The notes: generated from the letters alone by a model not told the origin. Positions 1,203 through 46,042 are shown, counted from the first letter of the stretch. The stretch is DNA of 64,000 bases from Candidatus Sulfomarinibacteraceae bacterium (GCA_963769215.1 CAVYKX010000004.1:235566-299565), one strand, 5' to 3'. Program-made: numbers and translations.

Positions 1203-1335
1203 GCTCTTCTGCAAACGGCGTCCCGCGTGGTTGCCACCCCAAACATTGTTCGGAACCTGTCGCCATCCTATTGAGAAGAGTATCCTCCCGAACAATGTTT
1301 GAAGTGGCACGCCCGATCAGCGCGCTGTTTTGCCG
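1203..1335 (-). repeat. Rod-hairpin interspersed element, alpha subtype, copy 1
   Basis: The minus strand reads CAGCGCGCTGATCGGGCGTGCCA-CTTCAAACATTGTTCGG-loop-CCGAACAATGTTTGGGG-TGGCAACCACGCGGGACGCCGTTTGCAGAAGAGC. The stem is 17 bp (2 G:U), plus an outer GCGTG/CACGC helix. Confidence 0.85.
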
Positions 1336-1350
1336 ACGCCATTCGGGGTC

Positions 1351-1388
1351 CAAGCCCCAAGCCTCAAGCCGCAGGGTGGGTGGATGGG
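1351..1388. repeat. CAAGCCN heptamers x3 plus G-box GGGTGGGTGGATGGG, abutting the stop at 1390
   Basis: CAAGCCC CAAGCCT CAAGCCG CA GGGTGGGTGGATGGG. Confidence 0.8.
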
Positions 1389-1389
1389 A

Positions 1390-2819
1390 CTACAGGCTGA
1401 ACTCAGCCGAGTGCCTGCTCACCACCTTGCCATCGCTGGTCATCGTCCAGGAGCAGCTGACGCCCTTGCCGTCCTCTTCGACCTTCACCTTCATGACAAA
1501 CTCGGTCTGGCTTCCGCTCGGGGCGACGAAACCGGTCCGCATGCTCGCCGGGTCGCCGGAGGCAATCGTGAGGTGAGGTTCGCTGAGGATCTGTCCCGTA
1601 TCGAGGTTTGTGACGACCGCGGTGACCAGGTATTGGCCGGGACGGCCCGGCTCGACCTTGATATCGACATCGATGTGCTCTACGGCGCCGATCGAGGCGA
1701 TGACCCGCTGCGGCCCGAAACGCACACCGTAACCGACCACGGCTTCCTGTTTGCGGCCTTCCTCGCTCAAAACGGTACGGAATCGCCAACCTTTGAAGGC
1801 TTCTTCGAGTGCAGAGGCATACGATGATGAGGGTGCAGCCAGGATTTCCGGGTCCCTCAGCCGGCCATCCGTCGTCAACACTCCCCGGAAAACAGCCAGC
1901 TCGCCCATCGATCCGTCAAGATCCTGATCAGTCGGCGCCACCAGTTGGACGTCAATCGCCTGGACAAGGCCGTCGCGCTCGGCCACCAGATTCGGCGGGC
2001 TTTCAACGCTCTCGACGAGAAGTACCACAGTAGGATTGCCGGCATCGCCCCGGCTCGCGATGGTCGCCGATCCCCAGGTCGTCCGCGGGAGATTGATCGT
2101 CGCCTCCGTTCTCACCTTTTTTGTCCTGCTCATCTCTTCGAGCGGCGCCACCTCCAGGACATCACCGTTTTGTGACCAACCGAGCCCGTTGCTCCGCAGC
2201 ACCAGATCGAGTGCCTGGTCCCACGGAACCTGGCGCAGGTCGACGGTGACCGTGCCGGTCACCGAGGGCCCGGCTTCAATCGTGTACGGCGTGATCTGCG
2301 AAAACACCTTCAACACGTCGCGAAGGTCAGCCCCCTGAAGCCGAAGTGAAATCTCCTTGCCGGTGAACTCTGTAGTGCCGGCAGGCCCCTCCGGCTCCAG
2401 GAACTGGACCTTGCACACCGCCCGGTCTCCGGAGAGCCGGATCGGCGTGAAGACGACCCCGATCCGGGGATTGAGGTCGACTGCCGGAAGCACCGCCTTA
2501 TGGCCGACCTTCAAGGGAAGATAGTACTGGCGGGCCAGCAGCGTCGCGAGCCGCATCGACTCTTCGACACCTCGCATGGCCTCGCCGACCATTCGCACCC
2601 GTTTGAGGATCTCCCCATCGATTGCCTTCTGGCCTCGGCGATCAACCTCAGCCTCGGAGTAGACGCCTCCGGCACCAACGTTTCTTCAGCCCGATGCGCA
2701 AACTCCGGGCCGGTCTCCAGGAGTACCGTGACCCGAACCCATTGGATCTCGTCGGCCACAGCACTGCCAGGGGCCAGCACCGCCACCGCCAGTAACGCTG
2801 CATGAATGCGATTCTTCAT
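1390..2819 (-). pseudogene. Exported multidomain protein with a PilQ-N0/STN-like domain and a TonB-C-like domain; one frameshift at about 2600-2690
   Basis: Signal peptide MKNRIHAALLAVAVLAPGSAVA (frame of ORF 2511..3110) joins the 1390..2598 frame. DLRDVLKVFSQITPYTIEAGPSVTGTVTVDLRQVPWDQALDLVLRSNGLG resembles a secretin N0/STN domain. LEEAFKGWRFRTVLSEEGRKQEAVVGYGVRF resembles a TonB C-terminal domain. There is an ATGA overlap with the upstream anti-sigma gene at 2816-2819. Confidence 0.6.
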
Positions 2820-3160
2820 CGGCTCTCTCCCCTGTCTGTCGCCAAGACTTCGGTTGCCAGGTATATGGGTTCTCCGCTCTCGCGCAGCACCAGGATCACG
2901 TTGCCCCCGGTTTCGTGGACCCCGGCCGGTTCTTCCACGGCCATCATTGTCGGTGGTCTGCGAACAGCATCGAAACCAATCAACACCGCGATCAGGGAGG
3001 CTGCCGCCGCAGCGAGAACCACTCTCGGTCGCAGACGTGGACCAGGAATTCGATCCAGGAGGTTCCGTCGAAGCTGGCGCTCGTCTATCGCCGGTTCGGT
3101 CTGGGACCACTCACGCCAACGCTCTTCGAGATCCGGTGTGAGATCGTTCTTCTCATTCAT
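2816..3160 (-). CDS. Putative anti-sigma factor (single-pass membrane protein)
   Basis: 114 aa with one TM segment (VVLAAAAASLIAVLIGF). It is translationally coupled by ATGA overlaps to the ECF sigma gene upstream (3157-3160) and to the downstream gene. Confidence 0.5.
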   Translation of the reverse strand: MNEKNDLTPDLEERWREWSQTEPAIDERQLRRNLLDRIPGPRLRPRVVLAAAAASLIAVLIGFDAVRRPPTMMAVEEPAGVHETGGNVILVLRESGEPIYLATEVLATDRGESR

Positions 3161-3678
3161 GACCAGTTGCCTCCTCTGGCAATTTCTGAAAGCCGCCGCC
3201 GGCCGCGGAGACGGTGCACCCTGACCGACGAACTGGTGATGCCCAATACCTCACCGATCTCGTGATCGGTGAGCCCCTCGACGACAGTGAGGTGCAAGAC
3301 CGCCCGTTGGCGCGGCGCCAGCTTGACGAGCAGACGACCGACGTCGATCCGAGCGTCGACCGAATCCCCGGCAGCCGCTACTGCGATGCCGTCGATGGAG
3401 TCAAAGAACCGCCGCTTTCTGGCCCTGGCAATTGCCGTGTTGGCGACGATTCGGGTCAGCCACGAGGCAAACGCGCCGGGTTCCCGAAGGGTCCGGAGCT
3501 TTTTCCACGCTTTGATGAGCCCATCCTGCACCACGTCCTCGGCCTCCAGATCGGCCACGATCGACCGTGCCAGCGCCACCAGCCGTCGCCAATGGGCGGC
3601 AGCGAGGTCCGAGAAGGCCTCTCGATCCCCATCCATCGCCCGCCGTACCAGCACGGATTCGTCTTTCACTGTTGACAT
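3157..3678 (-). CDS. ECF-type RNA polymerase sigma-70 family factor
   Basis: Region 2 (DVVQDGLIKAWKKLRTLREPGAFASWLTRIVANTAI) and region 4 HTH (LAPRQRAVLHLTVVEGLTDHEIGEVLGITSSSVRVHRLRGRRRL) are both present. Confidence 0.9.
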   Translation of the reverse strand: MSTVKDESVLVRRAMDGDREAFSDLAAAHWRRLVALARSIVADLEAEDVVQDGLIKAWKKLRTLREPGAFASWLTRIVANTAIARARKRRFFDSIDGIAVAAAGDSVDARIDVGRLLVKLAPRQRAVLHLTVVEGLTDHEIGEVLGITSSSVRVHRLRGRRRLSEIARGGNWS

Positions 3679-3720
3679 GATGCACCTACCCGCGCGATTC
3701 GTTTACACATCGCGAACATC

Positions 3721-3855
3721 GGATCCCGATCCCGTTCCCGGATGGGTTTGGGGCTTGGGGCTTGGGGCTTGGTTTTCTGACAGCTGTATACCAATCGAGA
3801 GACTGCAAGCCTCAGGCCTCAGGCCTCAAGCCTCAAACCATGGGCGGGCGGGTGG
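3721..3855. repeat. Composite: C-tract hexamers, GGGGCTT x3, 33-nt spacer, CAAGCCT/CAGGCCT x4, G-box
   Basis: GGATCCCGATCCCGTTCCCGG (3721-3741); GGGGCTT x3 (3750-3772); CAAGCCTCAGGCCTCAGGCCTCAAGCCTCAAACC (3806-3839); ATGGGCGGGCGGGTGG (3840-3855). Confidence 0.85.
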
Positions 3856-3858
3856 ACG

Positions 3859-3885
3859 AAAAAAACCGGGCGTTTTCGCGCCCGG
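3859..3885 (-). terminator. Rho-independent terminator after the 3911..5017 gene
   Basis: The minus strand reads CCGGGCG-CGAAAA-CGCCCGG followed by TTTTTTT, 26 nt past the stop codon. Confidence 0.6.
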
Positions 3886-3910
3886 TCGTAGAATTTTATT
3901 GCCCGGGAAG

Positions 3911-5017
3911 CTACTTCATATTCGCAGGCACCGCCCACTCCTTGAGTTGGTCGGTCTCTGCGTAATTGGTAAGGCTCCACCGCGCGCCTTCAGCGACTTT
4001 CGAGTCAGCAATACCCTCGAGCGCCAGCAACACCTCGAACGCTCGGTCGCCTTCTTCCGGCGTCCCGAGGGTGCGGACGATGTTCAGGCCCAGAATGGCC
4101 TCGCATCGCAACCGCCGGTCGGGCGCGTTCTGCGCCGTTTCCACCAGGACGTCGAGTTTTCCGGGTCGCAATTTGAAGTCGATCTCTCCCCGGTCGTCCA
4201 ACCGGATCGAGTCCATGACATCCGTCGAGGTCAACCGCTGCTTGGTGCCGAGCCGTTGCGCGGGAACCTCGCCAAGAACAACCGAGGCGAGCAGTGCAGT
4301 CTCGAGATCGCCATCTGCGAGGGCACGCTCGTAGACTCCACGGGTTCCGAGGTGGATACAGGCCAGACCCACAAGATCGCTGATCACCACGACATCTTCC
4401 TGCCGCAGCAGCCGGCCGAGCCGGATGGCGCGCCGAAAATCAGCCATCGCGGTCTCACTGTTCTCGGCAGCCAGGCCCCGGGCCACCCACGACCTCACCA
4501 TGTTCAACGGGAGGAGGAGATTCGTGATCCGTGTCGCATATCCATCGAGCGCAAAGATGTCGGGATAGAACGTCATGGTCGCCTGATCGCACCAGGGTTC
4601 GGCTTCGAGCAGCAGCGGATCATCGGGAGGAAGGACCTTTCCCAGCCACTCCGGGCCTTCGACCCGTCGTTCCAAAGCGGCAGTGGCATCGGCGCGTCGG
4701 GGACCGACGTCCTTGGCGAAGAGGGCAAACCACTCCGCCGCGTTGCCGGCGCCGGTGCCCAGCGGCGCCAACAGGTCGAGATCAGTCTGGAATCGTAAAG
4801 CCCAGTCGTTGGCGGACGGGCAACTCCAGCACGGCACCTCGAGTTCCGCTACCCGGAAGGCGACAGGGTCCGGCACTGTTGCGTCAGGCGCTACAACAGC
4901 CGAGACGGGTTGATCACGGGCAATCAAACGCGCGCCCAGCGAGCCCGCCAGCGCCACAATGACGGCGGCCGCGAGCAGCACCGGCAACAACTTCGATTTT
5001 CGGAAAAACGGATTCAT
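3911..5017 (-). CDS. Hypothetical exported protein, third gene of an ECF sigma/anti-sigma operon
   Basis: 368-aa ORF with an N-terminal anchor (LLPVLLAAAVIVALAG). ATGA overlap with the anti-sigma gene at 5014-5017. No family recognised. Confidence 0.6.
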   Translation of the reverse strand: MNPFFRKSKLLPVLLAAAVIVALAGSLGARLIARDQPVSAVVAPDATVPDPVAFRVAELEVPCWSCPSANDWALRFQTDLDLLAPLGTGAGNAAEWFALFAKDVGPRRADATAALERRVEGPEWLGKVLPPDDPLLLEAEPWCDQATMTFYPDIFALDGYATRITNLLLPLNMVRSWVARGLAAENSETAMADFRRAIRLGRLLRQEDVVVISDLVGLACIHLGTRGVYERALADGDLETALLASVVLGEVPAQRLGTKQRLTSTDVMDSIRLDDRGEIDFKLRPGKLDVLVETAQNAPDRRLRCEAILGLNIVRTLGTPEEGDRAFEVLLALEGIADSKVAEGARWSLTNYAETDQLKEWAVPANMK

Positions 5018-5418
5018 GATTGGTTTCCTCCCAGGTCGAGATCGACCGGGTCTGCGGCTGCCGCAAAAAGCCCGACGATCGGTTGCACGTCTTTTGCGAT
5101 TCGTACAGGGCGCAGAAGGTCTGAGAACTGCTGATCAGGGCGGTTTTCCGCAGCCCGGATCGAGTCCGTTCGATCTCCGATCGAACCCTCATGTCGGGCT
5201 ATGAAAACGTTACCGGCCAGGAGCAATATCACTGCTGACGCCCACGCGAGTCGGATGCCCCGGTGGTTCCAGATCCTCGACCACAGGTCGGGGACCACCC
5301 CATCCGCCATCCGTGCACGAGCCGCTGGAACAACCCGCGAACGAAGATCGGACGGCATCTGAATCGGTTCGAGGCCATCAAAAAGGCTCTCGACTTTGGA
5401 GTCTCTCGTATCAGTCAT
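5014..5418 (-). CDS. Putative anti-sigma factor
   Basis: Internal start MTDTRDSKVESLFDG within ORF 5014..5712. One TM segment (LAWASAVILLLAGNVFI). 8-nt overlap with the sigma gene stop at 5411. Confidence 0.5.
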   Translation of the reverse strand: MTDTRDSKVESLFDGLEPIQMPSDLRSRVVPAARARMADGVVPDLWSRIWNHRGIRLAWASAVILLLAGNVFIARHEGSIGDRTDSIRAAENRPDQQFSDLLRPVRIAKDVQPIVGLFAAAADPVDLDLGGNQS

Positions 5419-6142: not shown

Positions 6143-6159
6143 CTTGATACGATTGATAC

Positions 6160-6792: not shown

Positions 6793-6845
6793 CCGTTCGC
6801 AATTGTAGCAATTTGGTGTACCCTCTCGTTCGCCGGGGAGGCTTT

Positions 6846-8147: not shown

Positions 8148-8211
8148 CCATCCCCCGACCAACCCAGCGCGAATTCGGAAGTCGGAATTAGGAATTTCCA
8201 CCCCGCCCCCC
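8148..8211. repeat. Heptamer array GAANTNG x4 followed by a C-box, just after the stop at 8147
   Basis: CCATCCCCCGACCAACCC...GAATTCG GAAGTCG GAATTAG GAATTTC CACCCCGCCCCCC. Confidence 0.8.
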
Positions 8212-8409: not shown

Positions 8410-8460
8410 GCGGGTGGGCGGGCGGGAAATCCAAAATCTAAAATCCAAATCAAAATCTGG
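8410..8460. repeat. G-box (canonical G4 motif) followed by AAATCNA heptamers, upstream of the start at 8510
   Basis: GCGGGTGGGCGGGCGGG AAATCCA AAATCTA AAATCCA AATCAA AATCTGG. Confidence 0.8.
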
Positions 8461-8509
8461 ACTTCAGGTCCCGCTTGCCCCTCCAGCCAACCTCGTGGAT
8501 GATATCGGC

Positions 8510-10120: not shown

Positions 10121-10187
10121 CCTGAAATCGCAGTCAAATTACAATTGAAAGCCGCCCAGCCTCAAATTTTGATTAGCCGTGAGCACA

Positions 10188-10306
10188 CTCGGCGGAGGTG
10201 CAATCTTTTGCATTGTCCGGGTCAGAACGTGCAGAACCTGTTCAGCCAGCTGGTCGGTCAATGCTAAAGGTGGCTCCTTAGCGGGAAGCGCGCACCAGAA
10301 CGGAGC
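10188..10306 (+). repeat. Rod-hairpin element, beta subtype, copy 2
   Basis: CGGCGGAGGTGCAATCTTTTGCATTGTCCGG-loop-GGTCGGTCAATGCTAAAGGTGGCTCC...GCGGGAAGCGCGC. It overlaps the 3' end of CDS 10278..11096. Confidence 0.8.
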
Positions 10307-11096
10307 TGATCATTCCTCGGCTGAAGCGATGCGCCGCTCTCAACTCTCCCAGTTTCGCCTGAATGACGCTGACGTTGTCCGGCCCCATTCGCAGAAAATG
10401 ACGCTGCGCGCCGGAGAGCCCCTCGATTTCCTCATCGGCCCACGCATACGTCACGATCAGCTGGTTCACCTGAGCGGAATCCTCGAGAACAGGAACGGCC
10501 AGCAGTTGATCAAAGGCTGCATCGAGGCGGTCGTCAAAGCTCTTGCCCGCGGGAGCGATCTCGGCAAATGCATCATCGATCAGCGGTTTCAGCTCGCGGT
10601 ACAGTGCGACGGTGCCTTCGGTATCGAGAGAAGAAAACACATCCGCCACGATGTCATAGCGTCTGTAGCTCTTCGAGTCGATCACCGCAACTCCGCCACT
10701 CCGCTTTTTAACCGCGAATCCATCCTTCGGACGGAGAAACTCGAGCTGAGATTTTGGGCTGACTCCTGCAGCGATACTGTTGACCGCCGCGGTGAACCGC
10801 CGAATCAAGTCCTCATTGACCAGCCAGGCTGCGAGCTTGGGATTGGACGAGAGACCTTCCGCCAACTCGCGCACGACGGCGTCGGAGGTTTTCAAGGTCG
10901 TGCCGGCGAGCTTCTGCGAGAGACGCTCCTCGAGTGAGGGCGTGGGTGTCGGCGCCGGCAGCGGTGTCGGAGCAACAACATCCTGCACGACTTCCTCTGC
11001 GGCATCCCGCGAGAAAAACCACCACGCGAATATGGCCACCACGATCAGCAGCAAAACAACGAAGACACCGATGATGGTGCGGTTGCTTTCAGACAT
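10278..11096 (-). CDS. Hypothetical N-terminally membrane-anchored protein (possibly DUF3014-like, not verifiable here)
   Basis: Start MSESNRTIIGVFVVLLLIVVAIFAWWFF, followed by a soluble domain. The 3' end overlaps hairpin repeat copy 10188..10306. Confidence 0.55.
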   Translation of the reverse strand: MSESNRTIIGVFVVLLLIVVAIFAWWFFSRDAAEEVVQDVVAPTPLPAPTPTPSLEERLSQKLAGTTLKTSDAVVRELAEGLSSNPKLAAWLVNEDLIRRFTAAVNSIAAGVSPKSQLEFLRPKDGFAVKKRSGGVAVIDSKSYRRYDIVADVFSSLDTEGTVALYRELKPLIDDAFAEIAPAGKSFDDRLDAAFDQLLAVPVLEDSAQVNQLIVTYAWADEEIEGLSGAQRHFLRMGPDNVSVIQAKLGELRAAHRFSRGMISSVLVRASR

Positions 11097-11196
11097 TGGG
11101 AACCTCCGCCTCACAGGATACACTGACGCGCGTTTTCTAATGGAGAGAGACCATGGATGCCACTGGGAGGATTGAACCGACAGGTTGAATTGTCAG

Positions 11197-11299
11197 TTCT
11201 CAATTTTGAATTTTGAATTCCCCCACCCACCCTTGGACCTTTTCGTTACCGGGGGGAGGAAGGGAATTGAGAATTGAGAATCTGAGAATTGAGAATTTT
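11197..11299. repeat. Palindromic composite: TCAATTT-type heptamers, C-box, 18-nt spacer, G-box, GAATTGA heptamers (divergent promoter region)
   Basis: GTTCTCAATTTTGAATTTTGAATTC CCCCACCCACCC TTGGACCTTTTCGTTACC GGGGGGAGGAAGGG AATTGAGAATTGAGAATCTGAGAATTGAGAATTTT. Confidence 0.85.
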
Positions 11300-11351: not shown

Positions 11352-12890
11352 ATGGAGGCTTCGATGATCGACCCGCAACTGAACCTGGCACCAAGCGATC
11401 AGCACAATACGAAACTGGTGGCCAACGTGCATCCGACGGAATGGCGAAACCCGGTCCCCGATGGACGCTACAACCTGGTGGTCCTCGGTGCCGGAACCGC
11501 AGGCCTGGTCGCGGCGGCCGGCGCCGCCGGCCTGGGGGCCAGGGTCGCGCTCATCGAGCGCTCGCTCATGGGCGGCGACTGCCTCAACGTCGGTTGTGTG
11601 CCTTCGAAGGCCGTCATCCGGTCGGGCCACGCGGCACACGACGTGCGCACCGCGAACCGCTTCGGCGTTCACGTGGAGGGCGATGTGAAAATCGATTTTG
11701 CATCAGTGATGGAACGGATGCGACAGATCCGCGCTGACATCTCCCCGCACGACTCCGCCCAGAGGTTCTCCGAGCATTACGGAATCGACATCTACTTCGG
11801 TTCGGCCCGTTTTTCCGGGCCGGATACGGTGACTGTGGGCGATACAACCCTCCGTTTCAGGAAGGCGGTCATCGCAACCGGAGCGCGCGCGGCCGTGCCG
11901 CCGGTTCCGGGACTCGTCGAGGCCGGATTCCTCACCAACCACAACGTCTTCAATCTCACCGAACAACCGCAGAGGATGGCGGTGATCGGGGGCGGGCCGA
12001 TCGGCTGCGAAATGGCCCAGTCCTTTGCGCGGCTTGGCTCCGACGTGACAATCGTCGAAATGGGTGATCACTTTCTGGCCCGGGAAGACCGGGATGCCGC
12101 AGAAATCCTGAGGGCTTCACTCTCAGCCGACGGCGTCGCTCTTCGGTTGTCCACGACGCTCCGCGAGGTTCAGAGCACAGCGGACGGCAAGCTTCTGCTT
12201 CTCGACACTCCCGACGGTGAGCAGCAACTGACGGTCGACGAAGTTCTCGTCGGAGTCGGACGCGTACCGAATGTCGAGGGACTCGATCTCGAGGCCGCTG
12301 GCGTGGCCTCCGATCGCAGCGGCGTCACCGTTGACGACTTCCTGAGAACCAGCAATCCGAGGATATTCGCCTCCGGGGATGTCTGCCTCCCTTACAAGTT
12401 CACACACACGGCTGACGCCACTTCGCGAGCGGTGATCCAGAACGCCCTGTTCCCCGGGCCGAAAAAGCGCGTCAGCAAGCTGGTGATTCCGTGGTGTACC
12501 TACACGGACCCCGAAATCGCGCACGTCGGCCTCTACCCGCACGAGGCGGAAGAGCAGGGTGTCGAGGTCGACACCTGGGAGGTGCAGATGTCGGAGGTGG
12601 ACAGAGCGCTTACCGACGGCGAGACCGTGGGTTTTCTCAAAGTTCACCTCAAGCGCGGCAGCGACACCATCCTCGGCGCCACAATCGTCGCCCGTCACGC
12701 GGGGGAGATGATCTCCGAGATCACGACCGCGATGGCGGCGGGATTCGGACTCGGATCCTTCTCGAACGTCATCCACCCCTACCCCACCCGGGCGGAAGCC
12801 ATCCGAAAGGCCGCGGACGCCTACAACCGCACCAAACTGACGCCAACGGTCGCAGGCTTGATGAAGCGGTGGTTCGCGTGGACACGATAA
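11352..12890 (+). CDS. Class I pyridine nucleotide-disulfide oxidoreductase (mercuric reductase / dihydrolipoyl dehydrogenase family)
   Basis: FAD fold VVLGAGTAGLVAA, redox-active disulfide GGDCLNVGCVPSK, second Rossmann fold AVIGGGPIGCEMA, and a C-terminal dimerisation region. Confidence 0.85.
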   Translation: MEASMIDPQLNLAPSDQHNTKLVANVHPTEWRNPVPDGRYNLVVLGAGTAGLVAAAGAAGLGARVALIERSLMGGDCLNVGCVPSKAVIRSGHAAHDVRTANRFGVHVEGDVKIDFASVMERMRQIRADISPHDSAQRFSEHYGIDIYFGSARFSGPDTVTVGDTTLRFRKAVIATGARAAVPPVPGLVEAGFLTNHNVFNLTEQPQRMAVIGGGPIGCEMAQSFARLGSDVTIVEMGDHFLAREDRDAAEILRASLSADGVALRLSTTLREVQSTADGKLLLLDTPDGEQQLTVDEVLVGVGRVPNVEGLDLEAAGVASDRSGVTVDDFLRTSNPRIFASGDVCLPYKFTHTADATSRAVIQNALFPGPKKRVSKLVIPWCTYTDPEIAHVGLYPHEAEEQGVEVDTWEVQMSEVDRALTDGETVGFLKVHLKRGSDTILGATIVARHAGEMISEITTAMAAGFGLGSFSNVIHPYPTRAEAIRKAADAYNRTKLTPTVAGLMKRWFAWTR

Positions 12891-12896
12891 CGCCCA

Positions 12897-13003
12897 TTCA
12901 AGTTCTCAATTTTGAATTCTCAATTTTGAATTGCCGCCACCCAACCCAGCAGTAACCTGGAGAGGGTGGGTGGAAATTGAGAATCGAAGGAATTGAGAAT
13001 TCG
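12897..13003. repeat. Palindromic composite with the same GAATTGA heptamer flavour (between convergent genes)
   Basis: TTCAAGTTCTCAATTTTGAATTCTCAATTTTGAATTG CCGCCACCCAACCC AGCAGTAACCTGGAGA GGGTGGGTGG AAATTGAGAATCGAAGGAATTGAGAATTCG. Confidence 0.85.
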
Positions 13004-13017
13004 ATCCGCGGGATTCG

Positions 13018-13751: not shown

Positions 13752-13754
13752 TTT

Positions 13755-15980: not shown

Positions 15981-16095
15981 GAAATTAGGAATTCGGATTT
16001 TGGATTTCAGATTTTTCGAGCCGGCGCCACGGGCGCTCACCTCATGTGGGTGGGCGGGGCAAATCCAAAATCAAAATTCTGAATTCCAAAATCAG
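15981..16095. repeat. GGATTTN heptamers, 27-nt spacer, G-box, AAATCCN heptamers
   Basis: GAAATTAGGAATTCGGATTTTGGATTTCAGATTTTTCG ... GTGGGTGGGCGGGG CAAATCCAAAATCAAAATTCTGAATTCCAAAATCAG. Confidence 0.8.
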
Positions 16096-22425: not shown

Positions 22426-24086
22426 ATGGCCAATGGAATCGTCCCTGTCCCGAAACCGATCAATGACCCGATCAGTTCTTATGCCCCGGGCTCGCCCGAA
22501 AAGGCGTCGCTCAAGGCGAAAATCAACGAGATGCTGGGCGAGGAGATCGAGATCCCTCTCATCATCGGCGGCAAAGAGGTCCGAACCGGTAACACTGCCA
22601 AGGCTGTGTGCCCCCACGATCATCGGCACGTCCTCGGCGTCTACCACAAGGCCGGCGAGGCCGAAGTCGCAAATGGCCGTCGACGCCGCGGCCGAGGCCT
22701 GGAAGGAGCTGGTCGGAGATGCCCTGGGAGCACCGAGCCGCCGTGATGCTCAAGGCCGCCGAATTGCTGCAGGGTCCATGGCGGGACACGCCTCAACGCC
22801 GCCTCCATGCTCAACCAATCGAAGACGTCGTATCCAGGCTGAAATCGACGCCGCATGCGAGCTCATCGACTTCTGGCGTTTCAATCCCTACTACATGCGT
22901 TTCATCTACGAGCAGCAACCCGAGTCGGCGCTCGGCCATCTGGGACTACGTCGAATATCGCGCCCTCGAAGGATTCGTTTTTGCGGTCACGCCGTTCAAC
23001 TTCGCCTCGATTGCGGGTAATCTGCCGACCGCGCCGGCTCTGATGGGGAACACCGTGCTCTGGAAGCCGGCCTCGTCGACGGTCTTCGTCAACTGGCATT
23101 TGATGAAGCTCATGGAAGCCGCCGGCTTCCCGGCCGGCGTCATCAACTTCGTCCCGGGATCCGGCGGCCAGGTCGGCAACCCGGTCATGGCAAACCCCAA
23201 CTTGGCAGGCATCCACTTCACCGGCTCGACTCCGGTGTTCCAGGGGATGTGGAAAACGATCGGCGACAACATCGCCAACTACCGCACCTATCCCCGCATC
23301 GTCGGCGAAACCGGCGGCAAGGACTTCGTCTTTGCCCACGAGTCAGCAGATCTGGATGCCCTGGCCACAGCTCTCGTTCGCGGAGCCTTCGAATACCAGG
23401 GTCAGAAGTGCTCGGCTGCGTCGCGAGCCTACATCCCGAGCTCGATCTGGCCGAAGGTGAAGGAGCTCGCGCTCGGCCAGATCTCAGAAATCAAAATGGG
23501 ACCACCGACCGATTTCCGGAACTTCTTCAATGCGGTAATCGATGCCGGCGCCTTCCGCGACATTACCGCCTACATCCAGTACGCCAAGGACTCCTCGGAT
23601 GCCGAGATCCTGTGCGGCGGCGAGTGGGATGACTCCGAGGGTTTCTTCATCCAACCGACAGTCGTCCAGACGACCGACCCACACTTCAAATTGATGGAGG
23701 AGGAGATCTTCGGCCCCGTCTTGACGGTCTACGTCTACGACGAGAACGACCTCGACGGCGCCCTCGAGCTCTGCGACACCACCTCGCCCTACGCTCTGAC
23801 CGGTGCGATCTTCGCAGAGGACCGGCTGACGCTCGTGAAGATGGCGGACCGCCTCCGCCACGCCGCGGGGAACTTCTACCTCAACGACAAACCCACCGGC
23901 GCTGTGGTCGGTCAGCAACCGTTCGGCGGCGGCCGGGCGTCGGGCACCAACGACAAAGCGGGCTCGTATCTCAATCTGATCCGCTGGACATCACAGCGCA
24001 CCATCAAGGAGAACTTCATTCCGCCGAAGCACTTCTCGTATCCGTTCATGGGCGAGGAGTGGAACGAATTCGGAATTTGGATTTAG
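22426..24086 (+). pseudogene. pruA: L-glutamate gamma-semialdehyde (1-pyrroline-5-carboxylate) dehydrogenase, at least 5 frameshifts between about 22660 and 22935
   Basis: The pieces read MANGIVPVPKPINDPISSYAPGSPEKASLKAKI... / AVDAAAEAWKE / WSEMPWEHRAAVMLKAAELLQGPWRDT / LNAASMLNQSKT / QAEIDAACELIDFWRFN / EYRALEGFVFAVTPFNFASIAGNLPTAPALMGNTVLWKP...EYQGQKCSAASR. Each piece is in a different frame. Confidence 0.8.
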
Positions 24087-24133
24087 AATTTGGATTTGCC
24101 CCCACCTGGGTAGGAATTCCCACCCACCCTCCC
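24066..24133. repeat. GGATTTN/GAATTCG heptamers spanning the pruA stop, followed by C-boxes (canonical G4 motif on the minus strand)
   Basis: GAATTCGGAATTTGGATTTAGAATTTGGATTTG CCCCCACC TGGGTAGGAATT CCCACCCACCCTCCC. Confidence 0.85.
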
Positions 24134-28826: not shown

Positions 28827-28848
28827 ATAGTCAGCACTGAGTTTGCCG

Positions 28849-28980
28849 GCAGAAGAGCACGATCGGCGGAGGTGCCATCTTTTGCATTGTCCGAACTTCA
28901 AATTTCCAGTTGCGAGATCGATGTGGTCGGTCAATGCTAAAGGTGGCTCCGCGCGGGAAGCGCAATCGCAGAAGAACGCG
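28849..28980 (+). repeat. Rod-hairpin element, beta subtype, copy 3
   Basis: GCAGAAGAGCACGATCGGCGGAGGTGCCATCTTTTGCATTGTCCG-loop-GGTCGGTCAATGCTAAAGGTGGCTCCGCGCGGGAAGCGCAATCGCAGAAGAACGCG. Confidence 0.85.
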
Positions 28981-29024
28981 TTCAAAAATGGAGCGCCTAC
29001 CCTCAGCAACGATTGCGGACAATC

Positions 29025-30099: not shown

Positions 30100-30165
30100 C
30101 CAGCAGGTTCTGACCGTCTCCGTACCCGACGATTCAGCGGCAGTTCAGGTTCTACCGATTTGGAC

Positions 30166-30303
30166 GCCCTCTTTTGCGAGCGCTGTCCCGCGTGGTTGCC
30201 CCCCTTGACGATCTTATGGACCTGATGCCTTAGCCACTTGAAAGTCAGTACTCCCAAAATCGTCAAGGACGGCACGCCCGATCAGCGCGCTTTTCTGCGA
30301 GAG
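30166..30303 (-). repeat. Rod-hairpin element, alpha subtype, copy 4
   Basis: The minus strand reads GCAGAAAAGCGCGCTGATCGGGCGTGCC-GTCCTTGACGATTTTGG-loop-CCATAAGATCGTCAAGGGG-GGCAACCACGCGGGAC. The stem core TTGACGAT/ATCGTCAA differs from copy 1, but pairing is kept. Confidence 0.85.
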
Positions 30304-36318: not shown

Positions 36319-36332
36319 AACGCCGGCAGCTC

Positions 36333-40618: not shown

Positions 40619-40734
40619 GTTTCCCGGCCCCTTCTCCAAGAACCCGGATTGACGTCCGGCTGGCCGCACTGCCCGGCCCGAAGCGCAGCCTCGCTCGCCG
40701 GTGTTCACTCCGCACCGCACCGACGGCTCCGGTC

Positions 40735-42227
<1,493 letters not shown>

Positions 42228-42317
42228 AATACCTCCCCGCGGGCACGTCTGCGGGCGCGTGATTCTACCATGGCAATACGCCTTCAGCGAATTGCAGAGA
42301 GCATGTTTTTCAGTGGT

Positions 42318-43148
42318 TTAGCGTTTTTGCCTCGGTCCGCCAGAGCGCGATCGAGGACGCTTTCCCTCGTCAACGGAGCGCGGTCGCCGGCGGCGAGATG
42401 AGCTCGGTTTCTTTGCTTTCGCGGTCAAGCGTCGAAGAGCCCGCACCTCAGCATCGGTCACAGTGCGAAATTCACCCGGCTTCAAGGTGTCGTCCCGGAG
42501 TTCTCCGATGGCGGACCGGCGCAGCCGCTGTACGTGATGGCCGGCCTTGAAAAAAAGTTCCCGCACCTCGTGAGTCCGGCCTTCGGTGACTTCCACCTTC
42601 CACCAGGTCGTCTTCCCTCCACGATTGACCGAAACGCGCTCTGCGCGCCGCGGTTTGACATGGCGGCCTTCGACGACCGTGCCGGCCAGGAGTTTGCGGT
42701 GTTCGGCGTCCGTCAAATCACCGCGAATCTTGACCATATATTCCCGCACCACGCCGTGCCGCGGGTGCGAAACCCGGGCCGCGAGTTCGCCGTCGTTGGT
42801 CAGCAGCAGCAATCCTTCGGAGTGGTAGTCGAGCCGACCGACCGGGTAGATCCGCTCGCGGATAACCGGTTTGATGATGTCGAGAACCGTCTTCCGCTCC
42901 TCGGGGTCGTCACAGGTCGTCATCACCTGCCGCGGTTTGTAGAGCAGGATGTATCGCAGCGCCTCCGGCGCCTTCAGCATCTTGCCGTCGACTTTGATGT
43001 GGACGTGCGCCGGATCAACCTTCAGGCCTGGTTCGGCCACCCGGCCGTCGACCGTTACGCGGCCTTCGTTGACCGCTCGATCGGCATCGCGCCGCGAACA
43101 CAGACCCGAGCGCGCAATAATCTTCTGGAGTCTCTCTTCAGCCATCAT
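42318..43148 (-). CDS. rluB: RluB/RsuA-family rRNA pseudouridine synthase
   Basis: S4 domain (RLQKIIARSGLCSRRDADRAVNEGRVTVDG) and catalytic PVGRLDYHSEGLLLLTNDGELA. Intact, with a basic C-terminal tail. Confidence 0.85.
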   Translation of the reverse strand: MMAEERLQKIIARSGLCSRRDADRAVNEGRVTVDGRVAEPGLKVDPAHVHIKVDGKMLKAPEALRYILLYKPRQVMTTCDDPEERKTVLDIIKPVIRERIYPVGRLDYHSEGLLLLTNDGELAARVSHPRHGVVREYMVKIRGDLTDAEHRKLLAGTVVEGRHVKPRRAERVSVNRGGKTTWWKVEVTEGRTHEVRELFFKAGHHVQRLRRSAIGELRDDTLKPGEFRTVTDAEVRALRRLTAKAKKPSSSRRRRPRSVDEGKRPRSRSGGPRQKR

Positions 43149-43226
43149 TCCCCCGATTTCTGGGATACTCCGCCTCTCGGCGGGGAGAGGGAATGTATCA
43201 CAGGCAATCGAAGTGGTTCATCTTTC

Positions 43227-43404
43227 GGCGCGCTCTTCTGCACATGCCACACCGCGTGATTGCCACCCTTGACATTGATCGGACCGTTCGGCCAAGCGAT
43301 TTCAGCCTATGAGATCCCGACAATGTCAAAAGTGGCACGTCCGATCAACGCGCTCTTCTGCGGGCGCGCTTCCCGCAAAGAAGCCACCTTGAGCATTGAC
43401 CGAC
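43227..43404 (-). repeat. Rod-hairpin element, alpha subtype, copy 5, plus an adjoining truncated beta half-unit
   Basis: The minus strand reads GCAGAAGAGCGCGTTGATCGGACGTGCCACTTTTGACATTGTCGG-loop-CCGATCAATGTCAAGGGTGGCAATCACGCGG...GCAGAAGAGCGCGCC. Positions 43362-43404 equal only the 3' arm of a beta unit (GTCGGTCAATGCTCAAGGTGGCTTCTTTGCGGGAAGCGCGCCC on the minus strand). Confidence 0.8.
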
Positions 43405-43409
43405 TCACT

Positions 43410-43460
43410 GGGAGGGTGGGCGGGAATTCCTAATTCCAAAATCCTAATTCCTGATTCAAT
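43410..43460. repeat. Canonical G4 box plus AATTCCT heptamers, upstream of the start at 43479
   Basis: GGGAGGGTGGGCGGG AATTCCT AATTCCA AAATCCT AATTCCT GATTCAATC. Confidence 0.85.
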
Positions 43461-43478
43461 CGTCTATCCTGTCGAAGC

Positions 43479-44721
43479 AATGCCCAACATCGACACCTCC
43501 GCTCTCAAACGCGATCTCCTGCTTCGCGGCGTGTGGGAGGCACTCGGCACGCCCCTATGTCATGTGACGGGGGGGTATGTTCGCGATCTCCTGCTCGGCC
43601 GGGAAAGTGCCGACCTCGATCTCGTGCTTCCCGGCAATCTCGACGCAGTCAGGGGACCGGCGCGCCGGTTGGCGGCCCGGCTCGATGCCGGCGCGCACAT
43701 CCTCGGCCGGGACGAGAAGCGCGTGTGGCGGATCGAGACCGAGCATCTCAAGGTCGAACTCTGGCCGCTCGGTAGCCTCGATCTCGGCAGCGATATCCGG
43801 CGTCGCGATTTCACCTGCAACGCACTCATGTGGCAGATGCCCGACGGTCCCCTCATCGATCAGGTCGGTGGTATCACGGACCTCGAGACCGGAACCCTGC
43901 GAGCCGTCAAGAAATCCAACCTCGAGAGGGACCCCGTGCGTCTGGTTCGCGCGGCTCGCTTTCTGGCTCAGTTCCCCGATTTCGAAATTGACCAGACAAC
44001 GGCCGGGTGGCTTCGATCCCTTGCGTCTCGGGTGTTGCGCTCGCCCAGCGAGCGCCTCGGTCAGGAACTACTCAAGCTGGTTGCGGCATCAGACCTCGAA
44101 CGCGGTTTTCGAGCACTCCTGGACTTCGGCCTGATGCGGCACATGGTGCGGCCCGCGGCTCGTTTTGACGACGCATGGATGACCGCCAACCTCGATGCTT
44201 CCACCCGAATGCAACTGTCAACACATCCATCACGTGCCGCCCTCGCAGCGGCAGGCGACGCTGCTCCTCTTGCCATGCTCTTGCGCGCCTGGGGCTCACC
44301 ACATCCTGACGCCACCGCACCCTATGCCTGGCCGCGCAGCCTTCGGACGCACGCGGCCCTCGCCGCACAGTTGCTCGACCAGGTCATACCCGCGGTTGAC
44401 GGCCCGGTCGGAAACCGACGCGCCTTGATCCATCGAGCAGGACACGCCTTCCCTGCCGCCCTCGCCTTCGCGGCCGCCATCGAACCCGAGCACAATTGGG
44501 ATCGATGGTGGCGTTTGTGGCGTCAACGCGGCCCGGAATTGGTTGATCCCGAGCCGCTTCTTTCCGGCAACGAAATGTCCGCCGCGCTCGGCATCCCTCC
44601 TGGCCCCTCCCTCGGCCGCGCCATCGACGCTCTCACCAAGGCGCAGGTCCGCGGGAAAATCCATACGGCCGGTGGTGCGAGGAGATGGCTCAAAAAGAAC
44701 GTTGAAACGTTAGAACGTTGA
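43479..44721 (+). CDS. CCA-adding enzyme / poly(A) polymerase-family nucleotidyltransferase
   Basis: GGYVRDLLLGRESADLDLV and RRDFTCNAL head-domain motifs, plus DPVRLVRAARF. The last 8 codons or so lie in an AACGTT heptamer array. Confidence 0.75.
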
Positions 44722-44797
44722 ACGTTAGAACGTTCCGACCACCCACCCAGGCTATGGGCTATAGGCTATGAGCTATGGGCACCTCCCACCCGCCCGG
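44697..44797. repeat. Double unit: AACGTT heptamers, C-box, GGCTATG heptamers, C-box; spans the stop at 44721
   Basis: GAACGTTGAAACGTTAGAACGTTGAACGTTAGAACGTT CCGACCACCCACCC AGGCTATGGGCTATAGGCTATGAGCTATGGGC ACCTCCCACCCGCCCGG. Confidence 0.85.
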
Positions 44798-44807
44798 TTG
44801 ACCAAAG

Positions 44808-45058
44808 GCTGAACGGCACGCTCAGCGGAGGTGCCATTTTTTGCATTGTCCGGATCGTGACGCCTCTAACGGTCTGGCATCATGGTCGGTCAATGCTAAA
44901 GGTGGCTCCTTTGCGGCAAGCGCGCCCGCAGAACAGCGCGCTCGCCGGAGCGTGCCAGTTTTCGCATTGTCCGGAGAGTCGACTGCAACTGAGATGTCGG
45001 TTGGGTCGGTCAATGCGAAGGCTGGCAACTCTCGGGAAGCGCGTTTGCAGAAGGGCGC
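44808..45058 (+). repeat. Two tandem rod-hairpin elements (beta subtype, copies 6 and 7) sharing a GCAGAACAGCGCGC junction
   Basis: Unit 1 is ...GGAGGTGCCATTTTTTGCATTGTCCGG...GGTCGGTCAATGCTAAAGGTGGCTCC.... Unit 2 is GCAGAACAGCGCGCTCGCCGGAGCGTGCCAGTTTTCGCATTGTCCGG...GGTCGGTCAATGCGAAGGCTGGCAACTCTCGGGAAGCGCGTTTGCAGAAGGGCGC. Confidence 0.85.
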
Positions 45059-45113
45059 ATTGAAGGAGTGAGCGCGGTCCAGAATTGGTATCGGGCTCCA
45101 AGACGGGCACGGG

Positions 45114-45518
45114 TTACGAGCCAGAGAACTCCAGCAACTCGACCGGCATGCCATTGTGCAGAATCATCGCGACCCGGATGCCCTCCATCGGCGACGAAAC
45201 CTCGCCGATGAGCTCCTTGCCGGTGACGGCGGCATCGAGGTCGTCGACCTCGAAGGCGATGTGGGGCACGGTTCGGACAAGCTCGGAAACCGGACTGTGG
45301 TCGTCGAATCGCATCCACTCGACCCCGTAAGGACTGGTACCGAAACCGGAGACGTGCATCCCGAGCTCCGCGAGATGAATCTCCCCTTCTCGCGGAGTAT
45401 CGGTGGGGATGCCGAGGTGGTGGTAGCGCCAGCCCCAGTCGGCAACCGCTGCCGGCGGGTCGGTCTCGTGACGGATCTCGAGGTCGGCGTCTCTGTTCGA
45501 ATCATCGCGTTCGTTCAT
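45114..45518 (-). CDS. VOC (glyoxalase/bleomycin-resistance) family protein
   Basis: 134 aa. YHHLGIPT...HIAFEVDDLDAAV...GIRVAMILHNGMPVELLEF follows the beta-alpha-beta-beta-beta pattern. Confidence 0.6.
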   Translation of the reverse strand: MNERDDSNRDADLEIRHETDPPAAVADWGWRYHHLGIPTDTPREGEIHLAELGMHVSGFGTSPYGVEWMRFDDHSPVSELVRTVPHIAFEVDDLDAAVTGKELIGEVSSPMEGIRVAMILHNGMPVELLEFSGS

Positions 45519-45577
45519 GTCTGCTCCACCTGGTCGGGTGATCGCCGTCGGTCAATGGTACTCCGACCTGCACATCT

Positions 45578-45635
45578 GGATTCGGCCGAATTCGGATTTC
45601 GGAATTCGGAATTCAGAATTCCCACCACCCCACCC
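45578..45635. repeat. GAATTCG/GGATTTC heptamers plus a C-box (G-box then heptamers toward the VOC gene start on the minus strand)
   Basis: GGATTCGGCCGAATTCGGATTTCGGAATTCGGAATTCAGAATT CCCACCACCCCACCC. Confidence 0.8.
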
Positions 45636-45690
45636 ATGAGGAACTGCAGATAAACACAGATCGAATTCGAAGATCTGTAGGGAGTGCGAC

Positions 45691-45817
45691 GGCAGAAAAG
45701 CGCTTTGATCGGGCGTGCCACTTTGAACAATGTCGGAACCTCTCGGGCTGAAATCGTTTCGGCGAATGGCCCGATCATTGTTAAGGGTGGCAAACCGCCG
45801 GCGGCTGCGATTTGCGG
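45691..45817 (+). repeat. Rod-hairpin element, alpha subtype, copy 8
   Basis: GGCAGAAAAGCGCTTTGATCGGGCGTGCCACTTTGAACAATGTCGG-loop (GGCTGAAATCGTTT, as in copy 5)-CCGATCATTGTTAAGGGTGGCAAACCGCCGG. Confidence 0.8.
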
Positions 45818-45913
45818 CCCAGGATTCGTCGTCAGGCGAATCCATGGGCCGCGCGCAGGCGACGGTGCTTCACGGCGGCCCCGGGCCGCCAGTAACCACG
45901 CGGTAGGGCGTCC

Positions 45914-46042
45914 GCAGAAGAGCGCGCTCGCCGGAGCGTGCCAGTTTTCGCAATGTCCGGAGAGTCAATCTGAAATGAGATGCCGGCCGGGTCGGTCAAT
46001 GCGAAGGCTGGCAACTCTCGGGGAGTGCGTTTGGAGAACAGC
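45914..46042 (+). repeat. Rod-hairpin element, beta subtype, copy 9 (preceded by a degenerate 3' end of another unit at about 45870-45913)
   Basis: GCAGAAGAGCGCGCTCGCCGGAGCGTGCCAGTTTTCGCAATGTCCGG...GGTCGGTCAATGCGAAGGCTGGCAACTCTCGGGGAGTGCGTTTGGAGAACAGC. Confidence 0.85.

Follow-up and report, generated by a model that had tools for sequence, protein, structure and literature searches.

In the small number of phyla where interspersed hairpin repeats have been investigated, elements such as REPINs, ERIC and Correia influence how genes are transcribed, how stable mRNAs are and how genomes rearrange. For Acidobacteriota, to our knowledge, almost nothing is known about such repeats. REPINs, which are mobilised by the RAYT (TnpA-REP) enzyme, are extragenic, and each consists of two inverted arms with a spacer between them that is less conserved. 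Head-tail dimers of REPs are uncommon (PMC3733652). Class-3 Y1 HUH genes have been reported from Acidobacteria, where atypical hairpins with a CnGA foot flank them; class-3 TnpA-Y1 hairpins are also found in Planctomycetes, and Solibacter usitatus carries ~600 of them per genome (PMC6006769). These hairpins are 26–29 nt long with the consensus CnGAGCCGCGACCGTNAGGGAGCG (PMC6006769, supplementary Table S1).

The family considered here was found in a 64,000-nt stretch of DNA from a Candidatus Sulfomarinibacteraceae bacterium (the window). Its behaviour is that of small mobile DNA without coding capacity, a type of element familiar from other bacteria, but its layout is unusual. It is probably a lineage-specific, non-coding, non-autonomous interspersed hairpin repeat of uncultured Acidobacteriota, which acts like a REPIN, an ERIC element or a MITE and spreads via a single-stranded intermediate.

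Occurrence of the Family in the Window

A covariance model was built from the nine copies of the initial annotation, which had proposed this check, and was run against the whole window with filters off. Exactly nine full copies were recovered (95–134 bits, E 1e-19 to 1e-27), and their coordinates and strands agreed with the annotation to within a few bases. One partial copy (43370–43503, minus strand) was the sole further match above noise. The opposite strand of the nine sites scored only 20–38 bits, so that the repeat is polar. The end motif GCAGAAGAGCGCGC, with up to two mismatches allowed, occurs 11 times in the window vs. 1.55 expected, and none of 100 shuffles gave 11.

Each of the nine copies folds into a long imperfect hairpin (−40 to −68 kcal/mol), with the stem pairs quoted earlier and, in the copies at 43227 and 45691, the common loop word GGCTGAAATCG. 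The division into alpha and beta holds, but the number of subtypes does not: there are at least three subfamilies (alpha, beta1 and beta2) and an alpha variant with a 101-nt module. All copies in the window are intergenic and bordered by genes of ordinary housekeeping type. They lie on both strands, spread across 45 kb, with one unit in roughly every 7 kb. The host's CCA-adding enzyme has its closest named relatives in Acidobacteriota and Thermoanaerobaculales MAGs. The units, tails and leaders in the window are listed below.

1117..1156, minus strand: remnant direct repeat and 3' tail, downstream of the 1195–1336 unit (nhmmer with the 3'-tail profile, E 4e-6)
1195..1336, minus strand: alpha-type unit (direct repeat, hairpin, direct repeat); 126.5 bits, hairpin −55 kcal/mol
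1337..1383, minus strand: leader-like module directly 5' of the 1195–1336 unit; CCACCCACCC block, then (GAGGCTT)n
10173..10313, plus strand: beta1 unit with a degenerate 5' direct repeat; 95.5 bits
28846..29003, plus strand: beta1 unit with 3' tail (GCAGAAGAACGCGTTCAAAAATGGAGCGCC); 126.8 bits, tail match 28968–29003
30160..30301, minus strand: alpha unit, antisense to both flanking genes by gene context; 125.7 bits
43224..43364, minus strand: alpha unit; 133.1 bits
43345..43411, minus strand: partial beta unit (3' arm only), with a direct repeat in common with the 43224 unit
43412..43460, minus strand: leader 5' of the array; 7-nt-period repeat (GGAATTA type) and CCCGCCCACCCTCCC
44695..44804, plus strand: leader 5' of the array; two modules, each of a 7-nt repeat and a C-block (AACGTTG type and GGCTATG type)
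44805..44924, plus strand: beta1 unit, first in a head-to-tail pair; 99.3 bits
44925..45113, plus strand: beta2 unit with ~45 nt of 3' tail; 134.4 bits
45575..45688, plus strand: leader; (GAATTCG)n, then CCACCCCACCC, then CAGAT-type repeats
45689..45913, plus strand: alpha unit with a 101-nt GC-rich module in the 3' arm and a 3' direct repeat common with the next unit; 103.8 bits for 45689–45825
45911..46070, plus strand: beta2 unit with 3' tail; 129.5 bits, tail match 46034–46070

Unit Anatomy and Arrays

Unit anatomy was drawn from the window copies and 65 further copies on related metagenome contigs; 83 matches were obtained in 63 such contigs. Units are 117–123 nt long, with the direct repeat GCAGAAGAGCGCG on both sides. 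From this repeat each runs through a conserved 5' arm, a variable apex of ~35 nt and a conserved 3' arm to the next direct repeat; the repeat-to-repeat distance is 119–122 nt in all copies except one. In the consensus of 76 copies with their flanks, conservation begins at GCAGAAGAGCGCG and is strong in the arms and poor in the apex. The common ends reported earlier represent a single 13-nt direct repeat, which bounds every unit and is common to tandem neighbours. Solitary copies possess an additional 3' tail of 35–50 nt resembling the start of another unit.

Another unit adjoins 20 of 63 copies. Tandem neighbours, spaced 117–123 nt, stand head to tail with one direct repeat in common. Sixteen adjacencies join unlike types (alpha-beta or beta-alpha) and five join like with like, and therefore the arrays are not explained by local duplication. 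An oriented leader of 7-nt repeats and a CCCACCC block is present at 20 of 43 array starts, i.e., in about half of the arrays. Its elements follow in the order of a locus-specific 7-nt microsatellite, the CCCACCC block (G-quadruplex/i-motif type) and (CGCAGAT)n iteron-like repeats.

Stem Pairing and Strand Asymmetry

In the stem, 87% of cells are paired vs. ~42% when the partners are slid, and two-sided changes are found in 16 pairs (136 cells vs. 41 in shuffles); the consensus hairpin has 27 core pairs and is 89% paired. The compensatory stem changes claimed in the initial annotation are upheld. Most of the two-sided changes separate subfamilies and therefore reflect few independent events. 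Palindromic DNA repeats give the same compensatory signal, and for this reason the signal alone is no argument for RNA.

G·U cells outnumber A·C cells about five to one (269 vs. 52); therefore, one strand folds better, the sense strand being stabler in 72 of 76 copies (−59.6 vs. −50.6 kcal/mol). This asymmetry fits RNA and single-stranded DNA equally well. T·T mismatches are conserved at two stem positions.

Variation among Strains and Relatives

Between strains with 95–98% identity in the flanking genes, entire units have been gained, lost or exchanged. In strain L125, one additional unit of 118 nt, running exactly from repeat to repeat, stands between the 44805..44924 unit and the next one. 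Unit ends and the adjacent intergenic DNA diverge where flanking genes are 94–98% identical. According to the strain comparison, the 5' direct repeat of the 10173..10313 unit is intact in the strain represented by L144. The orthologue of the 28846..29003 unit in L134 shows three differences, two in the apex and one just 5' of the 5' direct repeat, and none in the arms. In the alignment of the 43224 unit, situated at the pseudouridine synthase/CCA-enzyme locus, with its 98% relative L116, the first ~35 nt are identical and the remainder is a 30160-like variant, which places the breakpoint inside the 5' arm. The 45911..46070 unit is identical in strains L125 and L179, and the 101-nt GC-rich module (45794–45894) is found again in L164, L165 and L176. 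Chimeric assembly may account for some of the contig-level 'rearrangements' seen at units.

Dozens of copies occur at unrelated loci in related genomes. The 44925..45113 beta2 unit with its 45-nt tail has 89–94% identity to copies in L122 and L152, at loci with no genes in common with the window. In a relative with only 77% nucleotide identity in the CCA gene, a beta2 copy is still ~90% identical, apex included. In relatives with 66–69% CCA-enzyme identity, diverged copies are present at some syntenic intergenic sites and absent at others; their terminal repeats have another sequence, yet still match each other. No variable target-site duplication was seen, nor a clean empty site opposite a site filled by the unit only; the sole empty and filled sites compared differ by more than the unit.

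Comparison with Known Elements

Like REPINs, the family is extragenic, high-copy and non-coding, its two inverted arms form one long hairpin round a less conserved spacer (here the ~35 nt apex), its clusters consist mostly of unlike partners, and a single-copy enzyme is presumed to act on single-stranded DNA in trans. Unlike the REP unit of 20–40 nt, the arms here are 45–50 nt long and are not stem-loops themselves; a 13-nt direct repeat delimits the units, which stack head to tail. The consensus of 76 copies contains neither GTAG/CTAC nor a conserved CGTC, GTAG or CGTC being the REP head. The single-copy RAYT of REPIN systems is flanked by repeats; no RAYT was found in the sequence searched here, which is not a complete genome.

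ERIC/IRU elements of Enterobacteria, which are 127-bp imperfect palindromes, are similar in size, long imperfect hairpin, intergenic position in either orientation and presence or absence among strains. They lack a bounding 13-nt direct repeat and arrays around a common repeat, and belong to another phylum. No sequence homology was detected by distant-mode blastn against 5,426 complete E. coli genomes (0 matches), and searches of plasmids, phages, viral contigs and E. coli genomes gave no match to the family.

Correia/NEMIS, RUP and MITEAba12 elements are likewise short, non-coding, dispersed and strain-polymorphic, with inverted repeats forming hairpins. The 120-nt units between genes share with MITEs the terminal inverted repeats and the lack of coding capacity. 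Unlike in MITEs, the direct repeats do not vary in sequence and are part of the element: in the flanks of 60 copies, only the constant 13-nt repeat is present and no copy-specific target-site duplication. A search with arm profiles for pairs up to 4 kb apart in related sequence revealed no parent insertion sequence with the same ends, as 105 of 106 arm pairs were <80 nt apart and no long pair was found. The BIMEs of E. coli and the present family are both intergenic mosaics in which a number of small repeat types combine regularly and unit types alternate. Their components have unrelated sequences, the units here are direct and not of alternating orientation, and the accompanying modules are 7-nt repeats and C-rich blocks.

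Class-3 TnpA-Y1 hairpins resemble the family in phylum, high copy number and atypical secondary structure. The CAGA within GCAGAAGAGCGCG, just 5' of the hairpin, recalls the CnGA foot, a 4-nt match being weak evidence. The Solibacter hairpin CnGAGCCGCGACCGTNAGGGAGCG has no match in the window with up to three mismatches, and a motif scan of 379 kb of related sequence yielded no class-3 gene. Integron attC sites and CALIN arrays are comparable in their imperfect hairpins (57–141 nt in attC), structure conserved more than sequence, reading of one strand and a common core in arrays. The attC R'' (RYYYAAC) and R' (GTTRRRY) cores are absent from the consensus, which has GTGCCA...TGGC(A/T); beta1 has no AAC, and GTTGCCA is misplaced and does not fit RRR. 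Integron arrays consist of ORF cassettes in one direction, usually beside intI; here, copies occupy both strands over 45 kb, with no ORF between tandem units and no integrase found in the window.

Rfam gave no match in the window at gathering thresholds, as the initial annotation had asked to be checked, and the best matches on 43150–46150 had E ≥ 1. The family lies outside each of the named families. The earlier MITE/REP-like reading therefore stands as regards a repeat element, in view of the unrelated loci, strain turnover, lack of orientation bias and lack of an Rfam match; it does not stand as strict MITE or REP membership, in view of the missing variable target duplication and GTAG/CGTC tag and of the searches, which found no partner transposase.

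Possible Mechanism of Spread

From these patterns we infer a single-stranded intermediate, targeting of the direct repeat and an enzyme acting in trans. One specific strand would fold into the long hairpin as single-stranded nucleic acid, and an enzyme encoded elsewhere in the genome would recognise the arms and the direct repeat. New units would preferentially enter at the direct repeat of a resident unit, which could produce head-to-tail arrays whose neighbours have one common repeat. Arrays of like units may be lost via recombination or slippage, so that unlike neighbours survive, and ectopic recombination between copies could swap unit types at a locus.

The leading guess for the mobilising enzyme is an HUH/Y1 transposase of RAYT or class-3 type. 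A RAYT/IS200-like transposase had been suggested earlier; a Pfam search of 40 window ORFs revealed no transposase, integrase or HUH protein and no Y1_Tnp match, and no HUH...Y motif was present when 379 kb of related sequence was translated in all six frames. As the genome is incomplete, such a gene may lie outside the sequence searched. Conserved arms with a diverged apex are expected under purifying selection on function and not after a recent transposition burst, which counts against the mobile repeat. The negative searches for an enzyme and for a parent insertion sequence, the missing variable target duplication and clean empty site, the possible assembly chimeras and the lack of the Solibacter consensus in the window likewise weigh against it.

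Alternative Explanations

It is unlikely that the hairpins primarily constitute a family of structured non-coding RNAs, with single units, arrays or copies in the UTRs of neighbours being transcribed and spread being secondary. The hairpins could then be stabilisers, processing sites or protein sponges, for example, and the single-stranded GCAGAAGAG linkers would be binding or cleavage sites. Compensatory pairing, conserved arms with a drifting apex, the G·U excess and the better folding of the sense strand agree with RNA, but single-stranded DNA accounts equally for the strand asymmetry. Many copies lie 50–100 nt after a stop codon; however, units between co-directional genes show no orientation bias (10 sense, 12 antisense). 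The oriented leader could hold a promoter, but in about half of the copies the sequence before the direct repeat is not conserved, and the densest region yielded neither a sigma-70-like promoter nor an intrinsic terminator. Rfam holds no relative, and gain, loss and swapping of units among near-identical strains are unexpected for a needed regulator.

Strain-difference breakpoints inside homologous arms, collapsed units with the hairpin deleted between repeats (L174) and an apex far more diverged than the arms could point to relics that are no longer mobile, kept alike and reshuffled solely by homologous recombination, gene conversion and slippage between copies. This is improbable: gene conversion alone makes no copies at new loci, whereas near-identical unit-plus-tail copies are found at unrelated loci, and the beta2 copy has kept its ~90% identity despite the divergence of the CCA gene.

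There is a similarly small chance that units, common direct repeats and oriented leader form one previously undescribed array-building system, with a dedicated enzyme adding or exchanging repeat-bounded units directionally beside the leader. If true, the system would formally resemble cassette or CRISPR-type arrays in its organisation, with structured 100-nt hairpins as the payload.

Array building by site-specific recombination at the direct repeat, as for integron cassettes, with a small circular unit bearing one GCAGAAGAGCGCG core being integrated and excised at resident cores by a tyrosine or serine recombinase that reads the folded hairpin as IntI reads attC, would suit the head-to-tail units with exactly one common repeat and a fixed period, the unlike neighbours, the clean repeat-to-repeat difference between strains, the strand-specific folding with T·T mismatches and the terminal repeats changing together in relatives, but it is very improbable given the window without a recombinase gene, copies dispersed over the chromosome instead of one array, units without ORF cassettes between them, the missing attC cores and a 120-nt circle plausible only as a single strand.

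Significance

The family is dense, and one unit per ~7 kb would amount to several hundred units per genome, if the density holds. The hairpin units are the main source of difference among otherwise near-identical strains. The combination of a direct repeat of constant sequence at the unit borders, unlike units arrayed head to tail, folding of one strand and an oriented leader of a microsatellite and a G-quadruplex-type block is not known to have been described, and the mobilising enzyme, once found, could define a new element-enzyme pair. In this lineage, the repeats interrupt metagenome assemblies, and they could be used to mark strains.

Hairpin Units of the Window and Their Distribution

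The nine copies of a rod-hairpin family claimed in the initial annotation were all found, in the same places and on the same strands. A covariance model trained on these nine copies (R1) and run across the whole window with filters off recovers exactly nine full-length copies (95–134 bits) and one partial copy (43370-43503, minus strand), the rest being noise. With two mismatches permitted, the window contains 11 occurrences of the end motif GCAGAAGAGCGCGC, versus 1.55 expected. The hairpin family is real and well above chance. Every window copy folds into the long imperfect hairpin that had been proposed (−40 to −68 kcal/mol). The unit has polarity, since R1 gives no more than 20–38 bits on the opposite strand of each copy.

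Judged by an approximate gene map together with Pfam scans, all window copies are intergenic and located among ordinary chromosomal genes, including those for a sigma factor, an AIR-synthase-related/HAD fusion protein, DUF3014, Sir2, OmpW, pseudouridine synthase, CCA-adding enzyme, CstA, aminotransferases and 2-oxoacid oxidoreductases. The region from 46 to 64 kb is free of hairpin units. The subunit genes of 2-oxoacid:ferredoxin oxidoreductase are present as two paralogous sets side by side (53793-55161 and 56944-58424), with 77–81% identity across stretches of 226–249 nt.

Homologues of the CCA-adding enzyme assign the window to Acidobacteriota; the closest named ones belong to Acidobacteriota and Thermoanaerobaculales MAGs (63–67% identity). 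A scan of a genome collection (596 Gb) with the 15-base pattern GGTCGGTCAATGCNAA gave 115 loci in unrelated taxa, all of them chance matches on checking with nhmmer, because the pattern is too short for a collection of this size. A metagenome collection scanned with a 23-base degenerate pattern yielded 65 loci, of which 63 are real, all from one JGI series of sediment samples (Ga0316187-Ga0316201); two (L160 and L167) were dropped, since the pattern matches AT-rich coding sequence there by chance. R1 detects 83 copies on the metagenome loci. Contigs L125, L134, L144 and L179 are orthologues of parts of the window (95–98% identical). Contigs of relatives at 98% (L116, L117), 76% (L119) and 66–69% identity (L118, L185-L188) were also compared.

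Unit Anatomy and Arrays

In 76 non-redundant copies with flanks, conservation begins sharply at GCAGAAGAGCGCG and ends at a second GCAGAAGAGCGCG. It is high in the 5' arm (~45 nt), collapses in the apex (~35 nt) and is high again in the 3' arm; the repeat-to-repeat distance is 119–122 nt with one exception. Solitary units extend into a tail, (A/T)TCAA-N3-5-GGAGCGCC, which is similar to the start of another unit. The alpha and beta subtypes distinguished initially both exist, but there are at least three subfamilies (alpha, beta1 and beta2); in beta2 the dispersed unit takes in ~45 nt past the 3' repeat.

An alpha variant carries a 101-nt GC-rich module, which recurs at other loci. In the window this module (45794-45894) is located within the 3' arm of an alpha unit and has its own small palindromes. 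Parts of it occupy the same position at L164/L165 and L176, which makes it either an alpha subtype or one more small repeat. At L174 (21-78, minus strand) a collapsed alpha unit consists of a repeat, CTGATCG fused to CACGCGGGAC, and a repeat; the hairpin is lost precisely between the arms, as slippage across a palindrome would give.

Units adjoining another unit account for 20 of 63 copies. Tandem neighbours have one direct repeat in common and a spacing of 117–123 nt. Alpha-beta or beta-alpha neighbours (16) outnumber like-with-like ones (5), even though no more than roughly one unit in four is alpha. Since adjacent units are of different subfamilies, local tandem duplication does not account for the arrays. 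Simple repeats (ATCGGG)n/(CACGGG)n often follow the array tail on its 3' side (window 46083-46115, L131, L181, L132, L125).

Covariation, Strand Asymmetry and the RNA Reading

Covariation was assessed on 74 copies, aligned with MAFFT without fitting to the model, and a 32-pair structure from averaged pairing probabilities. Standard pairs occupy 87% of cells versus 41–43% with partners slid by 1–3 columns. Sixteen pairs are changed on both sides, and two-sided changes amount to 136 cells versus 41 ± 5 in shuffles; the number of further pair types in this alignment is not above shuffles. The excess thus bears out the compensatory stem changes noticed initially, but the independent events are few, because most two-sided changes separate subfamilies.

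G·U cells exceed A·C cells (269 versus 52), and G·U is common, in 5 or more copies, at eight core-stem positions, A·C at two; two T·T mismatches are conserved. The sense strand therefore folds better than its complement, being more stable in 72 of 76 copies (−59.6 versus −50.6 kcal/mol, Wilcoxon p = 7e-13). This points to selection acting on one strand in single-stranded form, as RNA or DNA.

Counts based on crude gene calls give 10 sense and 12 antisense units between co-directional genes, and convergent contexts (12) are more frequent than divergent ones (5). The densest region was also scanned for promoters and terminators, and neither a sigma-70-like promoter nor an intrinsic terminator turned up. 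These observations speak against a cis-acting element, whether leader or 3'-UTR, needing fixed orientation; independent transcription is compatible with them. The comparison with Rfam proposed at the outset gave no match at gathering or permissive thresholds. A structured-RNA function of the units, one of the two readings offered initially, would fit the strand asymmetry as well as single-stranded DNA does and is considered unlikely.

Turnover between Strains and Loci

At the pseudouridine synthase/CCA locus of the 98% relative L116, the flanks and the first ~35 nt of the unit are identical to those of the window, and from there on the unit belongs to another alpha variant (30160-like). The partial beta copy at this locus is absent from L117. 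On the 3' side of the CCA gene, L125 has an extra 118-nt unit, exactly repeat to repeat, between the two units of the window, and a divergent copy replaces the second unit together with its 3' flank. At 10.1 kb the 5' repeat is intact in L144 and degenerate in the window, the upstream intergenic DNA being unrelated. Retained orthologous units have 0–4 differences, the internal ones mostly in the apex; the exception is the pair 10173/L144 with degenerate ends (15 differences).

Copies of the beta2 unit with its tail are 89–94% identical at L122 and L152, loci without genes in common with the window. The beta2 copy of the 76% relative L119 is ~90% identical to that of the window, apex included, and the CCA genes are 77% identical (DNA). 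In relatives at 66–69%, some of the syntenic intergenic sites hold diverged copies (40–63 bits) and others are without a copy; the spacer between CCA and cstA measures 28 nt in L118 and bears a unit in L185 and L186. Terminal repeats in these relatives are GGAAACGGCCCGCG-like, and the mechanism of spread would seem to keep the two repeats matched, because they have changed in sequence yet resemble each other at both ends. Purely recombinational maintenance of units, under which resident copies would only be exchanged and retained, is improbable.

Two apparent replacements at one locus (L171/L182 and L129/L133) were set aside as possible chimeric assemblies, because homology stops within the unit and does not extend to the far flank, which is unrelated. 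The comparison of an empty and a filled site (L118 versus L185/L186) was also rejected: the difference of ~215 nt exceeds the unit, so a target duplication is unreadable there.

Leader and Heptamer Modules

Of 43 array starts, 20 have a leader, located within the 80 nt that precede the first repeat and on the same strand. It includes an imperfect microsatellite of 7-nt period, whose unit changes from locus to locus, a C-block, CC(R)CCC(R)CCC, and, often, GAAAC with two or three CGCAGAT repeats. The period is 7 in all 28 strongly periodic cases. The opposite orientation occurs once, and C-blocks downstream of arrays are rare. Such a fixed relative orientation is consistent either with directional insertion beside the modules or with transcription from them.

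Heptamer and C-block modules also occur without hairpin units, some as inverted pairs between convergent genes. They form a second and more numerous class of intergenic repeats, in which 4–6 imperfect copies of a 7-nt unit precede the constant C-block. The heptamer varies by locus (GGATTTT, GAATTCG, AACGTTG, GGCTATG, GGATACC and others), and the modules differ between near-identical strains. About half of the hairpin arrays have such modules as an oriented leader on the 5' side. The complement of the C-block is a G-quadruplex-type motif, and that of the leader GGGTGGGTGGG is a putative G-quadruplex former.

Heptamer and C-block modules
8171-8209, plus strand, window
11190-11232, plus strand, window
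12903-12947, plus strand, window
24080-24129, plus strand, window
44695-44791, plus strand, window
45591-45635, plus strand, window
8416-8460, minus strand, window
12964-13005, minus strand, window
16048-16095, minus strand, window
43414-43460, minus strand, window
51677-51720, minus strand, window
L119:2735-2900, relative

In L119 three modules, each with its own heptamer, stand 5' of the beta2 unit. At 11190-11290 and 12903-13005 of the window, modules face inverted partners (G-block and complementary heptamers), giving very long hairpins in the short spacers on either side of gene 11352-12890. Iteron-like CGCAGATNA direct repeats (2–3 copies, 9–10 nt spacing, often preceded by GAAAC) come after the C-block and ahead of the first hairpin unit (window 45640-45670; 5' of units in L177, L170, L136, L181, L183 and L144); GCAGA is common to them and the direct repeat of the unit.

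Partner Enzyme and Known Families

Pfam scans of 40 window ORFs revealed no transposase or integrase, a motif scan for HUH-Y1 found no HUH...Y motif in six-frame translations of 379 kb of related sequence, and no long-range or orphan arm pairs mark a parent insertion sequence. A gene for a 134-aa protein (45114-45518, minus strand) lies between the CCA-enzyme and cstA genes with hairpin arrays on both sides. Its product has no family match, an exact-sequence look-up was also empty, and its motifs are what we take to be typical of the VOC/glyoxalase fold. At its place L187 has a 129-aa ORF, and in L118 the CCA and cstA genes are 28 nt apart.

E. coli genomes carry ERIC and REP/BIME elements; the units had no match in plasmids, phages, viral contigs or all complete E. 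coli genomes. The initial comparison with MITE/REP-like elements holds for behavior, the units being extragenic, non-coding, hairpin-forming, dispersed and strain-variable, as are REPINs, ERIC elements and MITEs, but a defining feature of each named family is missing. The GTAG or CGTC head of REP is lacking, and head-to-tail order is the rule here, whereas REP head-tail dimers are described as rare (PMC3733652). Unlike MITEs, the units have no variable target duplication, and no parent insertion sequence was found. Cassette-like site-specific recombination would account for units bounded by direct repeats; the units lack the core sites of integron attC, and this reading is improbable. No description of these repeats was found in the literature.

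The main hosts of class-3 Y1 HUH genes are Planctomycetes, Acidobacteria and Proteobacteria. Atypical hairpins that have a CnGA foot flank these genes, and Solibacter usitatus has ~600 such hairpins (PMC6006769). CAGA is present in the direct repeat here, just 5' of the hairpin. The link is a lead and not membership, because the Solibacter class-3 REP consensus (26–29 nt) is absent from the window. The sense-strand DNA hairpin may be cleaved at or near a candidate site, the GCAGA/AGAGCGCG junction in the direct repeat.

Proposed Mode of Spread

The family is most likely, and we hold this with moderate confidence, a lineage-specific non-autonomous hairpin repeat, spread via a strand-specific single-stranded intermediate with a preference for resident direct repeats. 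The units would both spread and be reshuffled through this intermediate, and the direct repeat of resident units would be the preferred landing site. The parts of the system most worth attention are the association with the leader and the logic of the arrays.
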